The notes beneath the pieces are model-generated. The model was not told the origin of the DNA, made no database searches, and saw only the letters and a program-made list of their open reading frames with translations. A stretch of 64,000 nt of DNA. Source: a virus (Duplodnaviria; Heunggongvirae; Uroviricota; Caudoviricetes). The stretch lies in IMG/VR virus record IMGVR_UViG_2724678985_000012. One strand, 5' to 3'. Below are positions 22,033-45,006 of the stretch, piece after piece. A program made the position numbers and the translations under genes. Position 1 is the stretch's first letter. Each line of letters begins with the position of its first letter.

Positions 22033-23249
22033 ATCACAATTCGAATGTATTGATTGTGGAGATAACTTAACATAGAATTTTCCTTGCTGGTGGGCAGTAC
22101 CCACGTTTCGCTTGCTGGGCTTGATAGTCACTTATTGGTTATTGTTCGCCCACCAGCATTTAACAAATTAAAGTGTTAGAAAAGTATGGTAATGCAAGAG
22201 CACGCTTTGGCACCGTGCAGGCCAAAGTTCAGCAGGTTTAGTGCGGAAAGTGGTTTCAGAGAGAGCACTTTGCGGAGTAAACGACAATACATGTTGAGCC
22301 ACGGAAGGTCTTTTTAAGGTGTTCATTGATGATGGTCCGGCAGAGAGTAACGGTACATGCTGCATCTAATCATCAATGCACATCTTCAACATTAAGGAGG
22401 CATAGGGATTTTTGTGGCGGTTACCTTTTGCCCTGAGTCTCCTTAATGTTGCGGTAATGCACCTATGCGGATGTGGCCTTGCATTGTGTCTTGAAAGAAT
22501 GGGGTAAGGCCGGGGATATCCCCAGGGGGAGGCACCCCCGCTGCAACGAACAGCCACAGACGGCAGTCGAGTGATGGAAACGTGTAAAGACTTTAAACCT
22601 CGTTACGGCTGGCGTGGCAAACGCGACAACCGAGACAGAGCGGTGACGGGCGGAGAGAGTGCCGCATCAAGAAAGAAGCCGACTTGTGATCCCTTTCTGC
22701 GGGCATTTGAAAGTGAATCCAGCTCAGGCAGTCGGCTTCTTTCTTGTGTGAGATGTAGCGTATTTGCCCATCTTCGGGTGGGCTTTTTTAGGGTTTTCGT
22801 CATGGTTAGCGACTTTGCGGCGGTTTAGAAACCGACCATTAAAGTAAATGCAAACGATGATCTGATGATGGTAGCGGCCTAAGAAGCCAGACGCCACGGG
22901 GTATGAGTCGTCCCCCGTCAAAAAATCGACCGCAGAGTGTCCCCGTCTGTGTATTAGGGAACGGGGAGGCATAACAGGCAAGGGCGCTGGTGTGATTAAC
23001 CAGATGAATGAGAAGGGTCAGGTCTTTCTGGTCAGCGCCCTTACCTGTTACGTCCCTCCCGCGTAACAGCCATTGATTAATGGCTTTCTGGGATAACATC
23101 CTACTACGGGTATATCCCGTCATGCTGAAGGCGCTAATCACGCTGGAAGCCAGGGTTGTGCATCCCCTGTTACCGAATTGCAGCCAGGGCGCGGTGCGCC
23201 GAAAAGCATACGGAGGTGGAAGCCCTCGCCGGAGACGTACCCGGCAAGT
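22033..23249 (+). other. about 1.2-kb GC-rich non-coding leader of the tRNA array with many stable hairpins; candidate structured ncRNA
   Basis: no convincing ORF (only short low-complexity frames); multiple perfect 10-14 bp stems and terminator-like gcccatcttcgggtgggctttttt near 22763. Confidence 0.4.
22171..22187 (-). promoter_or_regulatory. C1-operator-like motif site 6
   Basis: AAGTGTTAGAAAAGTATGG. Confidence 0.45.
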
Positions 23250-23326
23250 GATGGTGTAGCTCAGTAGGATAGAGCAGCAGCCTTCTAAGCTGTCGGTCGG
23301 TGGTTCGAATCCACCCACCATCGCCA
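23250..23326 (+). tRNA. tRNA-Arg (anticodon UCU)
   Basis: 77 nt cloverleaf: acceptor GATGGTG/CACCATC, anticodon loop CTTCTAA, T-loop TTCGAAT, encoded CCA. Confidence 0.85.
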
Positions 23327-23331
23327 ATTTA

Positions 23332-23418
23332 GGGGAGTTAGTCCGTAGGGGTAGCGGGGTAGACTGTAAATCTACTGTCATTGCGACTCGGGTGGTTCGA
23401 CTCCATCACTCCCCACCA
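23332..23418 (+). tRNA. tRNA-Tyr (anticodon GUA), long variable arm
   Basis: 87 nt; anticodon stem-loop GTAGA-CTGTAAA-TCTAC as in E. coli tRNA-Tyr; acceptor GGGGAGT/ACTCCCC; CCA. Confidence 0.75.
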
Positions 23419-23422
23419 AATT

Positions 23423-23498
23423 GCCGGTTTAGCTCAGTTGGTAGAGCGCCTGCCTTGTAAGCAGGATGTCAGCGGTTCGAGTCCGTTAACCGGCACCA
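23423..23498 (+). tRNA. tRNA-Thr (anticodon UGU)
   Basis: 76 nt; acceptor GCCGGTT/AACCGGC; anticodon loop CTTGTAA; CCA. Confidence 0.85.
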
Positions 23499-23704
23499 AC
23501 ACAACAGGTAAGGGCATTCTCCCTTATGGGGCTTGGCTTAAATGCATCGAGTGCTCTTACCGTTGTGATGAAGTGCAGCTCTTTGAAGCAACCAGAAGAT
23601 AAGCATCTGGCTTCACAACATAAACCGCAGGAACGACCAATAAACGGTAGTCCGTATGGAGAACACCCCGTTGAGGAAGAGGCCTGGCCGGAACCGTAAC
23701 CGGC

Positions 23705-23803
23705 ACCACAACGTTGAGAACACTGGCGTAACGGGGTCATATCCCAATCTATGAATAAATGTTGCGTTGCAGCGTGACAACCAGTGTTCTCAACATTGTG
23801 GTG
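23705..23803. repeat. long inverted repeat (20-bp arms) of the tRNA-island leader/trailer repeat family
   Basis: CACCACAACGTTGAGAACACTGG ... CCAGTGTTCTCAACATTGTGGTG; related copies at 23498-23518, 23562-23592, 23881-23902, 24080-24111. Confidence 0.7.
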
Positions 23804-23900
23804 AATGCACAGGCTGATGTGCCGCAACTACAGTAGTGCGCGCTTTGCGGGGCTTGCTACAACCCTGTGTCGGAGTTCAGCACCGACCATCACAATCACT

Positions 23901-23987
23901 GGAGAGTAGGGAGCATGGTGCTCAAGCGGTCTTGAAAACCGTCCCATTGCGCAAGCGATGATGGTTCGATTCCATTACTCTCCGCCA
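23901..23987 (+). tRNA. tRNA-Ser (anticodon UGA), class II with long variable arm
   Basis: 87 nt; acceptor GGAGAGT/ACTCTCC; anticodon stem-loop GCGGT-CTTGAAA-ACCGT; CCA. Confidence 0.7.
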
Positions 23988-24250
23988 GTGCAACGTTAAG
24001 AGTATTTGGCTAATTAAGCGAATGCCGGAAGCAGAACCGGATCACCAAATGCGTACAGGCGTCATCGCCGCCCAGCCAGCCAAGTGCTCTTACCATTGCG
24101 GTGAATGCGGCTAAGCGCACGCGGAACAGTTAAAACAATCCTCCTTAGTGGTTAAGTCAAACATCCCGGCGTTAATTGTTAACTGGTTAACGTCACCTGG
24201 AGGCACCAGGCACCGCAGCTTTTTTATTCGGTAAATAATGGAGTGAGAGG

Positions 24251-25294
24251 ATGCAGAACAATCCGAACAAATGTCGAACGCTATGGGTGCGGTTATATAT
24301 TTATGTCGTCCTCTGTTTGATTGTGTCACTGGTTCTGTATGTTTGGCTTTTGCCAAATATGATCTCATCTGACAGCACAATACTTGTATTGTTGGGAGTC
24401 CTTCTCGCGCTCATTTACCCGGCTTTTGCAGTAGTCTTTTTTCGTGAAAAAACCAGGAAATTGATTAATGAAAAAACGTTGATTAGTGCAGCGATTATTT
24501 TTGGTTCTTTATGTCTGACCGGATGCGATCGGGTAGAGCCAGGTAACGTAGGGATCAAAGTAAATAAGCTGGGGGATGATAAAGGTATCGGTGAAGTAGT
24601 TGGCGTTGGTCGCTACTGGACAGGCTTGAATACTGAAGTTTATATCTTCCCGACCTTTAAGCAAATGAAGACATACGATGAGCCGTTCAGCTTCCAGATG
24701 AGCGACGGAACAACCATTGGTTACCACATCGGCGTAGCCTACAAGGTTGATCCAGCAAAAGTCACAACGGTATTTCAGACCTATCGCAAAGGTGTAGATG
24801 ATATTACTGATACCGATCTACGCCAGAAGGTTGCAGATGCTCTGAACCGGTTAGCCAGCAAAATGACCACCGACAAATTTATCGACGGTGGCAAATCTGA
24901 ATTGCTTGATGCAGCCCTTAAAGACATTCAGGAAGAAATGACGCCCATCGGTATTCAGGTAATGAGCCTCTCATATGTGGGCAAGCCGGAGTACCCGCCA
25001 ACCGTTATCGACAGCATTAATGCCAAAGTCACGGCGAACCAGAAAACTCTGCAACGCGAGCAGGAAGTCAAGCAACGCGAAGCAGAAGCCAACATGCTGC
25101 GCGCAGAAGCTGCTGGACAGGCCGATGCCATTCGCACAAAAGCCCAGGCTGAAGCTGATGCCATTCGTTTACGCGGTGAGGCTCTGCGCCAGAACCCCGG
25201 CGTTATGGAGTTGGAAGCGATCAACAAATGGAACGGAACGCTACCGCAGTATATGACCAGTAATACCGCTGTTCCGTTTGTTCCGGTGAAATAA
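24251..25294 (+). CDS. SPFH (band-7/prohibitin)-domain membrane protein
   Basis: N-terminal TM/lipobox-like LTGC; SPFH-like core then Ala/Glu-rich coiled coil; true start likely downstream (24358 or later). Confidence 0.55.
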   Translation: MQNNPNKCRTLWVRLYIYVVLCLIVSLVLYVWLLPNMISSDSTILVLLGVLLALIYPAFAVVFFREKTRKLINEKTLISAAIIFGSLCLTGCDRVEPGNVGIKVNKLGDDKGIGEVVGVGRYWTGLNTEVYIFPTFKQMKTYDEPFSFQMSDGTTIGYHIGVAYKVDPAKVTTVFQTYRKGVDDITDTDLRQKVADALNRLASKMTTDKFIDGGKSELLDAALKDIQEEMTPIGIQVMSLSYVGKPEYPPTVIDSINAKVTANQKTLQREQEVKQREAEANMLRAEAAGQADAIRTKAQAEADAIRLRGEALRQNPGVMELEAINKWNGTLPQYMTSNTAVPFVPVK

Positions 25295-25448
25295 CCAAAT
25301 AGATAACATGATGGAATTTTGGACGTTTGCCGACAAGAACCCTTGGTGGACATTTTTATTTCTGCTGGTGGTTGCATATGGGGTCGAGCAAGCAGCAAAA
25401 GCCTTACGCGGTCCTGGCAAAAAGCGTAAGCGGAATTAACAGTAATCT

Positions 25449-25524
25449 GGCCCTTTAGCTCAGTGGTTAGAGCTGGCGACTCATAATCGCACGGTCACCG
25501 GTTCAAGTCCGGTAGGGGCCACCA
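25449..25524 (+). tRNA. tRNA-Ile2 (anticodon CAU, ileX-like; Met not excluded)
   Basis: 76 nt; near-identical architecture to E. coli ileX; anticodon loop CTCATAA; CCA. Confidence 0.75.
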
Positions 25525-25978
25525 TATTTGGTTGTAACACGGCGTCTGGCACATGCGTCGTTAGCGGTCTGGTGACGTTAAAGGGGTATCTTTGACTCTT
25601 GCTCAGGCAAACGGACCAGGTAGCCGGAATGTGCAAGCCCCGATAACAGTGGCGGACCGAGGACTCACCATCCTGGCGATTCGGTGTGACAGCCGGAAGA
25701 GCACGGCGCACAACAGGAAAAGGCGTTTAATTAGCGTGAGCGCCGTTTCCGTTGTGGTAATTGCGGCTATGCGCTCGTGACGAAGCCATTTTTATTCACT
25801 ACGTTCTGATAAGTGACGTCGCCAGGAGTGGCTAACCTGGCAGGTGGAGGCACCACCGCCACAACTCCTTTCAATTCATCATATAGCCGCTCAGGCTGTA
25901 CCCCTTAATTAATACGAATTTACGACATCACTACCGGCACTTCCGGGGGATAGTCGCGCGTGTAAAAAAGGAGACGTT

Positions 25979-26554
25979 ATGTTAATGGCGAACGATAACG
26001 CATATGCAGAAGAAGATCTCATTTTGAGTGACTTCATAGGGAAGCGGGAACGCTGGACCCAAAAGCGAGAGGAACTTTACGCCTCATTAGTTCGCAAAGG
26101 CGTCAATATCGAAACCGCACAGAGCGGCGATATGACAGTGGTAAGCGTTGGATTGCACGGTGTAAGCGTGTCAGCAATCAATCATGAGCCATACGTTGCG
26201 TTATCCGAGTCAATGGTAAGGTTAGTTAAGTTCCTGAAGTACACAGAAGCGAATAATGTAATCATTGGCAAAAAGAATATCCCTTTTTCCTCGGCTTTTT
26301 ACTGGATGATGAAAGGGCTTGATGCCCGGCGGACATCATGGCCTAAAGGGAGCTATATATCGATGTTCCGTGGCAGCATTGGCAGCAAAGAAAAGCTCTT
26401 CGAATTCTTGCCGGAAGAGGCATTCGATATTGTGGAAGGGTGCGATGTGATGGTGATGCCTCGCCTGGTAATGATGAATGGGGATTTACAGGCGCAGACA
26501 GACTGGTTTGCAACTGGTGTGGATATTATCGCGACTGACTGGGAGGCTTTCTGA
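25979..26554 (+). CDS. two-domain protein with C-terminal DUF2829-like domain
   Basis: 191 aa; C-terminal MKGLDARRTSWPKGSYI ... DIIATDWEAF matches DUF2829 signature. Confidence 0.45.
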   Translation: MLMANDNAYAEEDLILSDFIGKRERWTQKREELYASLVRKGVNIETAQSGDMTVVSVGLHGVSVSAINHEPYVALSESMVRLVKFLKYTEANNVIIGKKNIPFSSAFYWMMKGLDARRTSWPKGSYISMFRGSIGSKEKLFEFLPEEAFDIVEGCDVMVMPRLVMMNGDLQAQTDWFATGVDIIATDWEAF

Positions 26555-44734: not shown

Positions 44735-45006
44735 TTGGTTTTCTCCTGTCTGAACATCACTATCATCAGGTCGCCTTTTGTCGCTATTCTGGCTGTTGTG
44801 CCTGGTTCAATGCGGCTAAGCTCAAATGCGTCATAGAACGCTTCTAATGCCTTCTGGCGTAGTTCCTGTTTGCGCCGTTTTTTCCACTCTTTTAGGAAAA
44901 TGGAACCCAGCCATCGCCAGGTACGGGACATGATGTAAAGCCAACCGAAAAGTGCCAGACCGGTATTTAGGGCCGTATCGATTGTTATCGTGGTGTCGAT
45001 ATTCAC
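44731..45006 (-). CDS. small membrane protein
   Basis: 91 aa; N-terminal TM helix, basic stretch. Confidence 0.35.
   Translation of the reverse strand: MNIDTTITIDTALNTGLALFGWLYIMSRTWRWLGSIFLKEWKKRRKQELRQKALEAFYDAFELSRIEPGTTARIATKGDLMIVMFRQEKTK

Follow-up and report, generated by a model that had tools for sequence, protein, structure and literature searches.

Candidate RNA hairpins downstream of tRNA genes in a P1/D6-like phage operon

A hairpin family 3' of tRNA genes

Inverted repeats near the tRNA genes of an IMG/VR virus record (IMGVR_UViG_2724678985_000012, Caudoviricetes), described in an earlier note, were analysed here within a stretch of 64,000 nucleotides (nt), henceforth called the window, which by its sequence is a P1/D6-like phage. 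The repeats are the arms of one family of hairpins with six members, all located on the plus strand within 3.4 kilobases (kb; 22.38-25.76 kb), and as judged from covariation the stem structure is under selection, with the sense strand as the strand that probably folds. We think that these hairpins may well serve as RNA processing or stability elements, probably as RNase III substrates with cleavage that we infer from their geometry, and that they double as recombination points for tRNA genes.

The first hairpin of the central array, H1 (left arm L1 23496-23520, 27-nt loop, right arm R1 23548-23570), carries a bulged A after CACAAC and has a predicted folding energy of -39.7 kcal/mol (z = -4.9), versus -30.7 kcal/mol on the antisense strand. 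The most stable member is H2 (L2 23703-23727, 52-nt loop, R2 23780-23803; -56.0 kcal/mol, z = -6.0), which confirms the long tRNA-less hairpin that had been noted at 23705-23803; at 23703-23803 it has a stem of 23 pairs with one C-A mismatch (repeat I2, 96% complementary) and two small sub-hairpins in its loop, and hairpins of this type (H52) are found in most P1-like arrays. H3 (L3 23985-24011, 67-nt loop, R3 24079-24103) folds at -49.3 kcal/mol (z = -3.6); the L3/R3 duplex on its own gives -30.8 kcal/mol. While the repeats first described are thus real, the family is larger than listed, and three hairpins were added to it: H0a (22383-22456; duplex -30.9 kcal/mol, fold -34.9 kcal/mol, z = -5.3), whose upper stem has diverged (TCTTCAACATTAAGGAGG.../...CCTCCTTAATGTTGCGGTA) and which is also present in D6-like loci; H0b (22970-23052; duplex -35.0 kcal/mol, fold -45.1 kcal/mol, z = -5.1), of the TAACAGG...CCTGTTAC type, lacking the bulged A and with a 43-nt loop; and H4 (CACAACAGGAAAAGGCG.../...CGCCGTTTCCGTTGTGGTA, 25705-25759; -28.6 kcal/mol, z = -4.0, antisense -22.2 kcal/mol). 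The latter lies about 185 nt downstream of tRNA-Met/Ile2(CAT) (25449-25524, ARAGORN) and upstream of an open reading frame (ORF) starting at 25979, which presumably sits at the ban/dnaB position of P1 and RCS47.

Folding z-scores range from -3.6 to -6.0, with none of 200 shuffles being equally stable. An anchored scan of the whole 64 kb returned, on the plus strand, five hairpins of -27 kcal/mol or lower, all between 22.3 and 25.8 kb, and none on the minus strand, compared with a mean of 0.4 and a maximum of two for both strands together in forty dinucleotide shuffles of the same 64 kb. The stems in the window contain 19-23 pairs with at most one bulge or one to three mismatches, and so have the near-continuous double-stranded length of about two helical turns (20-22 base pairs, bp) that RNase III acts on. 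Loops within the family are free in sequence and vary from 5 to approximately 170 nt. Neither ARAGORN nor Rfam found a cloverleaf between the arms of any window hairpin, there was no Rfam hit on H1, H2 or H3, no Rfam family covers the hairpins and the P1 annotation does not record them. Rfam matches to mir-142, mir-223, mir-3622, Plastid-ycf2 and tmRNA_permuted on or near the hairpins were far below their gathering scores, and were discarded as generic responses to long hairpins.

The position of the hairpins relative to the tRNAs differs from that first proposed. The L arms of H1 and H3 begin on the CA of the CCA of tRNA-Thr(TGT) (23423-23498, plus strand) and tRNA-Ser(TGA) (23901-23987, plus strand), respectively, both called by ARAGORN, and as both arms of H1 and H3 lie 3' of the tRNA, the description as leader and trailer repeats flanking tRNAs does not hold. 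Nor does any arm pair enclose tRNA-Ser, since the real partner of R3 is L3, immediately after that tRNA (-30.8 versus -13.1 kcal/mol for the supposed partner). Of the six segments listed originally, five contain true arms (L1, R1, L2, R2 and R3), with 23562-23592 representing the basal half of R1 followed by downstream spacer; the sixth, at 23881-23902, is not an arm and consists of parts of a small hairpin (23869-23887) and a 9-mer, CATCACAAT, that make a duplex of only -13.1 kcal/mol with R3. H2 begins on the CCA of what looks like a tRNA-Thr stub: the sequence at 23687-23708 (plus strand; GCCGGAACCGTAACCGGC followed by ACCA, repeat family D4), predicted to form a separate 5-bp hairpin, matches the neighbouring tRNA-Thr in its first 5 nt and last ~14 nt (GCCGG...TAACCGGCACCA), and because it repeats both ends of that tRNA, H2 appears to follow an internally deleted tRNA-Thr. 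The same placement is seen in P1-like arrays in general, where a hairpin abuts the cluster-terminal tRNA (within 6 nt) in 78 of 82 cases for tRNA-Thr, 39 of 42 for tRNA-Ser and 6 of 10 for tRNA-Asn.

Covariation of the stem and choice of strand

We aligned 81 distinct arm pairs from relatives without gaps, joining the arms by a neutral linker and removing the bulged A after CACAAC, which is present in about half of the 81 pairs (alignment A2). In the resulting 21-pair stem, 90.7% of cells are paired, versus 75.2% in shuffled alignments and 35-55% when the partner is slid by one to three columns. Pairs 3-21 are kept across the 81 relatives and 19 of the 21 pairs have changed on both sides, with 269 double-change cells versus 72 +/- 9.5 in shuffles, a number reached in none of 500 shuffles. 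Upper stems have been replaced as a whole and in a compensatory fashion, as in the arm combinations GGTAAGAGCA/TGCTCTTACC, GTTGAGAACAC/GTGTTCTCAAC and GTTGAGACCAC/GTGGTCTCAAC, and likewise in GGAAAAGGCG/CGCCGTTTCC and ATTAAGGAGG/CCTCCTTAAT. The AAC...GTT at the base of the stem is almost invariant across arm pairs, and lambda, P1-like and other phages alike retain the larger basal 9-mer CAYCACAAC/GTTGYGRTG under a variable upper stem. Stem lengths cluster around two helical turns.

The strand that folds is suggested by the imperfect pairs and by the folding energies. On the tRNA-sense strand there are 103 G-U cells versus 34 A-C cells, a bias that should be read knowing that single-stranded DNA, too, tolerates G-T better than any other mismatch. 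In 87 of 96 distinct hairpins folding is more favourable on the sense than on the antisense strand (by 5.4 kcal/mol on average), as it is in five of the six window members. The hairpin strand is the strand of the tRNAs and of the downstream genes, in a region that from 22763 onwards is homologous to the annotated ban operon of P1. Since the orientation relative to tRNAs and transcription is constant in both P1 and lambda, RNA is the economical reading of this asymmetry.

Spacer modules, genomic setting and array turnover

The hairpins alternate with spacer modules that have a common order, consisting of the R arm, GAAT, hairpin a, 60-100 variable nt, hairpin b (GYCGG...CCGRC) and the 9-mer CAYCACAAC; the closing 9-mer can form the foot of the L arm that comes next (the case in H2), and otherwise has a payload behind it, either tRNA-Ser or an ORF. 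Module M1 (23571-23686, plus strand) extends from R1 to the next 9-mer, is kept in relatives and matches in architecture the STnc100-like module M3 (24097-24219, plus strand), which comprises the R3 tail GGTGAAT, a hairpin a', hairpin b (24196-24210) and the 9-mer CACCGCAGC (24211-24219), and sits just upstream of an SPFH gene. After R2, hairpin a (GCACAGGCTGATGTGC, 23807-23822, plus strand) is a sequence that recurs behind R arm plus GAAT in both P1-like and non-P1 loci, and hairpin b (GTCGGAGTTCAGCACCGAC, 23869-23887, plus strand) with its 9-mer (23888-23896) forms the leader of tRNA-Ser. Another small hairpin b precedes the first tRNA cluster (23228-23245, plus strand).

Rfam searches gave no hit for M1 and M2, and matched M3 (24097-24217) to STnc100 (RF02076; model positions 31-147 of 206) with 39.4 bits, below the gathering score of 47; P1 has the same sub-threshold hit upstream of tciA. 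The STnc100 consensus structure has a helix between the GGUG in the tail of the R arm and the CACC that follows hairpin b. In line with this pairing, the R 9-mer has a variable fifth position that covaries, across loci, with the 9-mer located about 110 nt downstream (T:A 31, C:G 28, T:G 7 and C:A 0), counts that come from few module types and hence few independent events. Together with the L-arm pairing, this gives the R 9-mer two possible partners. The loop of H3 contains a different element, module X (24011-24076, 65 nt), with an internal hairpin CCGGAAGCAGAACCGG. It is 98.5% identical to a lambda sequence that follows the late-leader hairpin, and about 88% identical to sequences of rV5-like Vequintavirus phages, where it is also found after tRNA-Ser, inside a different stem; it did not match any Rfam family.

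About 1 kb around the hairpins matches Punavirus genomes (the P1 family), with 93.7% identity to P7, 91.9% to D6, and 89-95% to P1, RCS47 and SJ46 over shorter parts. The segment 21700-23275 is 98% identical to phage D6, and homology to P1 starts at 22763; the part upstream is D6-like and not homologous to the Pban/C1-operator region of P1, and contains the sole sigma-70-like match (22050-22078). The counterpart region in P1 is the ban operon, with the C1-controlled Pban followed by a dicF-like region, tRNA-Asn, tRNA-Thr, tciABC, tRNA-Ile2(CAT) and ban; the annotation places plp and upl between trnT and tciA, in the opposite orientation. In the window, tRNA-Asn is replaced by tRNA-Arg(TCT) (23250-23326, plus strand) and tRNA-Tyr(GTA) (23332-23418, plus strand), which with tRNA-Thr form the cluster 23250-23498 (ARAGORN, also found by Rfam and as repeat family D4), and there is a tRNA-Ser, which P1 lacks. 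rV5-like lytic phages have a tRNA cluster to which the Arg, Tyr and Ser tRNAs show about 84% identity. The slot of P1 tciA-tciB-tciC is filled by an SPFH/Band-7 gene (24251-25294; Pfam PF01145, E = 1.9e-30), a variant common to RCS47 and Ro157c2YLVW. Further upstream, at 22640-22790, a long hairpin precedes a clean intrinsic terminator (GCCCATCTTCGGGTGGGC plus TTTTTT, 22766-22789), which corresponds to the end of the annotated dicF-like region of P1; no Rfam match to DicF with E<1 was obtained for 22500-26000.

Conservation in relatives, on which the earlier note had made its proposal depend, was found in P1, P7, D6, RCS47, SJ46, about 95 P1-like IMG/VR contigs, lambda and other phages. The arms are kept in P1, P7, D6, Ro157c2YLVW, RCS47, SJ46 and CMS-2020a, with module number and content differing between them. 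A search of IMG/VR with the exact R-arm pattern retrieved 115 contigs, of which some 95 have P1-like arrays and roughly 20 are non-P1, the latter having the same arms around unrelated loops of 25-170 nt. The 52 complete arrays represent 22 architectures with junctions at arms or loops, which bears out the suggestion that these are sites of tRNA gain and loss. For instance, SJ46 has lost ~280 bp, so that the H2 loop is joined to the loop of the next hairpin (H3') via a shared 25-mer (GTAACGGGKTCATATCCCAATCTAC); CMS-2020a shows a direct fusion of tRNA-Thr to an H2-type arm; RCS47 carries an additional module; and in Ro157c2YLVW a 150-bp insert with a 42-amino-acid (aa) ORF sits precisely at the junction of hairpin b and the L2 arm, a position equivalent to that of tRNA-Ser in the window.

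Outside the P1 group, the lambda member is located at 44787-44865 of NC_001416, starting 7 nt downstream of the T-run in the 6S RNA terminator, tR'. Escherichia coli K-12 has no copy in the DLP12 prophage and a degenerate one in Qin (ACAATGGCTAGCATA...TATGCTAACCATTGTGGTGAA; locus L126 5160-5225, minus strand, equal to NC_000913.3 ~1641161-1641225), between cspB and essQ; this copy overlaps an unannotated 11-codon ORF with a strong Shine-Dalgarno sequence. When the R-arm pattern was searched in 185,579 species-representative genomes, there were 16 matches versus about 35 expected by chance, including one Escherichia contig, and since these matches do not exceed chance level, the family lives on phages and prophages and not in core genomes.

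Some loops in relatives hold small RNA-like elements of their own. Isolated T-arm-like hairpins (GGTTCGAWTCC) stand beside an arm in the loops of loci L004 (1705-1797, which is H1 of P1), L007 (~2030-2117), L013/L069 and L079, and by their sequence suggest tRNA-derived or tRNA-mimicking cargo; ARAGORN and Rfam called no tRNA at these hairpins. The loop of a family hairpin in locus L047 (2138-2184; IMG/VR UViG_3300000333_000017), outside the window, contains a complete hammerhead type I-like core (CUGAUGAG...CGAAAC...GUC), which covers all 45 positions (1-45) of the Rfam model RF00163 and scores 24.7 bits against a gathering score of 34.

Possible functions and comparison with known systems

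In the reading that we favour, the family members would be structured elements of the RNA, located in the spacers and the long untranslated leader of a P1-type tRNA/ban operon and having a stem of ~19-23 bp with the base 5'-CAYCACAAC(A)...GTTGYGRTG(AA)-3', an upper stem that can change as long as it remains paired, and almost any loop. The stem would begin on the last two bases of a stable RNA, be it the CCA of a cluster-final tRNA, a tRNA-derived minihelix or the lambda tR' terminator, and would fold co-transcriptionally in the polycistronic transcript, after which host RNase III would cut the two-turn helices and separate tRNA clusters, STnc100/PasD-like leader modules and downstream mRNAs. 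Following the cut, the tRNA would keep a short 3' trailer to be trimmed to CCA by exonucleases, and the downstream RNA would keep a structured 5' end. At the DNA level the arms would act as homology patches, as each array has several of these ~20-nt arms and unrelated phages have them too, and recombination between them could add, delete and swap tRNAs, small ORFs and whole modules. The idea of RNase III processing cassettes, put forward in the earlier note, fits the geometry (19-23 bp, selection on the sense strand, stems flush with tRNA or terminator 3' ends), and cleavage is predicted on that basis. RNase III processing sites have been reported in vivo in the lambda late leader (Daniels et al. 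1988, Virology 167:568, as cited in PMC7547250), and the E. coli RNase III cleavage sites described in PMC6212723 include sites near tRNAs in intergenic regions.

Several observations weigh against this interpretation. RNase III has little sequence specificity, so that the enzyme alone fails to explain the conserved basal 9-mer. Among the window members, H0b is the only one that is more stable on the antisense strand, and the C-A mismatch of H2 falls on the sense strand. The covariation analysis used partners chosen for their duplex energy and so carries an ascertainment bias, and cell counts such as the 269 double changes overstate the number of independent events because many of the sequences are close relatives. 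The covariation between the R arm and the downstream 9-mer suggests an alternative helix, possibly with a different logic. As homology to P1 begins only at 22763, the operon promoter in the D6-like window is putative. Furthermore, that the RNase III sites of 1988 lie within the lambda hairpin at 44787-44865 is an assumption.

With the conserved 9-mer unexplained by RNase III, a sequence-specific factor or a switch between left and right pairing is a serious rival, if on balance a rather unlikely one. Here the base of the stem would bind a dedicated protein, or R would toggle between the L arm and the downstream 9-mer, with the downstream pairing closing an STnc100/PasD-like module and so controlling the biogenesis of leader small RNAs (sRNAs) and tRNAs. 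The constancy of the 9-mer in lambda, P1-like and other phages speaks for this, as does the downstream covariation, which concerns a helix belonging to the Rfam STnc100 consensus structure, and STnc100, like the related PasD, is one of the sRNAs that associate with Hfq and are encoded in the late regions of lambdoid prophages, in many cases close to TerB genes and tRNAs (bioRxiv 10.64898/2026.05.13.724894). Conversely, no candidate protein was identified, the downstream covariation stems from a handful of module types, M1 and M2 are without Rfam hit and the sole STnc100 match is below the gathering score. Related to this, and unlikely in our view, is the idea that the hairpin is the conserved socket of horizontally exchanged RNA cassettes in lambdoid, P1-like and rV5-like coliphages: the 9-bp base would be recognised by a dedicated factor or take part in a pairing switch with the next 9-mer, the interchangeable upper stem and loop would carry cargo RNAs (T-arm-like minihelices, the hammerhead-like ribozyme of L047, module X), and tRNAs and small ORFs would be inserted immediately 5' of the hairpin. 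There is room for such a scaffold because the hairpins are flush with tRNA CCA ends, come six per leader, share their 9-mer with neighbouring modules and have hypervariable, cargo-like loops. If true, these would be non-coding-RNA cassettes analogous to those of integrons, but working via RNA structure and homologous exchange.

It is likewise unlikely, though slightly less so than the cassette scaffold, that the arms have no RNA function at all and are linker or boundary sequences left by recombination and by cassette duplication and decay. Such DNA-level mosaicism would account for the strong variation in module number and content with junctions at arms or loops, for the resemblance of 23687-23708 to a decayed tRNA-Thr, for the 98.5% identity of module X to lambda, which suggests recent transfer, and for arms common to unrelated phages. 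However, neutral scars would not hold complementarity through compensatory changes at 19 of 21 pairs, and the threefold excess of G-U over A-C, the sense-strand advantage in 87 of 96 hairpins and the constant two-turn length despite replaced loops would be left unexplained. Coding on the minus strand, with the repeats being incidental, is highly improbable. P1 does annotate plp and upl antisense across H1-M1-H2 and beyond, and the window has an antisense ORF (23486-23827) through H1, M1 and H2 that is 86% identical to P1 plp over 107 aa, but this similarity only mirrors the ~95% DNA identity and breaks where the H1 loop differs. In relatives, 'plp' contains indels whose lengths are not divisible by three, module losses and an insertion of 150 bp; the ORF had no match in Pfam, and coding would leave arm complementarity and covariation unexplained. 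Given the divergence in the H1 loop and the disruptive indels of relatives, P1 'plp' is probably a mis-annotation. Equally improbable are intrinsic terminators, attenuators or pause sites, which stable GC-containing stems after stable RNA genes might bring to mind: no R arm is followed by a T-run, with GAAKGC following instead, which argues that the arms are not terminators; a terminator scan was negative for H0a-H3 and gave no more than a weak match, in the upper stem, for H4; and downstream genes and tRNAs must be transcribed through the hairpins. Finally, H2 may be a small hairpin RNA, as was also suggested before, and nothing specific speaks for this.

Taken as processing or stability stem-loops of phage polycistronic leaders, the hairpins are of a known kind. 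The family would turn the ~2 kb 'non-coding mosaic' of P1-family phages into an ordered array of tRNA cluster, hairpin, leader module and hairpin, in a region for which the P1 annotation has plp and upl, two antisense ORFs that are doubtful. It also offers a testable model for how phage tRNAs could be released from a long operon transcript without host-type trailers, and the repeated arms, as recombination handles, are a suggested reason for the fast turnover of tRNAs in phage-plasmids. Three phage lineages (lambda, P1/D6 and rV5-like) and the prophage sRNAs STnc100 and PasD would be linked through shared leader modules, and the hairpins constitute a candidate structured-RNA family unmatched by Rfam models, with strong covariation support (19 of 21 pairs).

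When compared with known systems, the hairpins are not members of Rfam STnc100, integron attC sites, miniature inverted-repeat transposable elements (MITEs) or terminators. Terminal inverted repeats of MITEs or insertion sequences were rejected, as loops of 5 to ~170 nt are unrelated in sequence and there is no flanking duplication beyond the shared CACAA motif. The resemblance to attC is by analogy only, and lies in imperfect inverted repeats 3' of a cassette with conserved ends and variable centre and length, and in arrays with variable cargo. The hairpin base ACACAAC / GTTGTGR differs from attC core sites, with one mismatch to RYYYAAC and two to GTTRRRY, and the arms of our family are conserved over ~20 nt. 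We know of no integron integrase context for P1 or lambda, and no integron integrase was seen in the P1, P7 and D6 stretches examined, the window not having been searched for IntI. Downstream of E. coli tyrT there are direct 178-bp repeats that each begin with the 3' end of tRNA-Tyr; they share with our array a tRNA 3'-end fragment repeated downstream, like the CCGGCACCA stub before H2, which implies unequal crossing-over, but they are direct repeats rather than hairpins and have no sequence relation to the family.

The STnc100 alignment includes the R-arm tail GGUGAAU, hairpin b (GGAGGCACC) and the CACC at the close, and STnc100 and PasD share with our modules the phage late or leader niche and the TerB and tRNA neighbours. 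In contrast to the family described here, STnc100 covers the spacer between hairpins and not the long hairpins, and both STnc100 and PasD are terminator-ended Hfq sRNAs. The RNase III stems of T7 early and late mRNA and of rRNA operons are two-turn helices in polycistronic transcripts that separate functional RNAs. They have no sequence similarity to the window hairpins, T7 sites contain internal loops, and rRNA stems enclose the mature RNA, whereas in the window both arms are 3' of the tRNA. The closest known system is the lambda late-leader hairpin, which has the same arms (CACAACAGGTAAGAGCATT ... AGTGCTCTTTCCGTTGTG), the same bulged A and a ~21-bp stem directly after the 3' end of a stable RNA, and is followed by the 65-nt module X that forms the H3 loop in the window. 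While lambda has one copy after a terminator and the window has several copies after tRNAs, the hairpins in the window are, going by their sequence, clear homologues of the lambda late-leader hairpin, and with cleavage as the predicted step they would work most like the RNase III processing stems of phages and rRNA operons.

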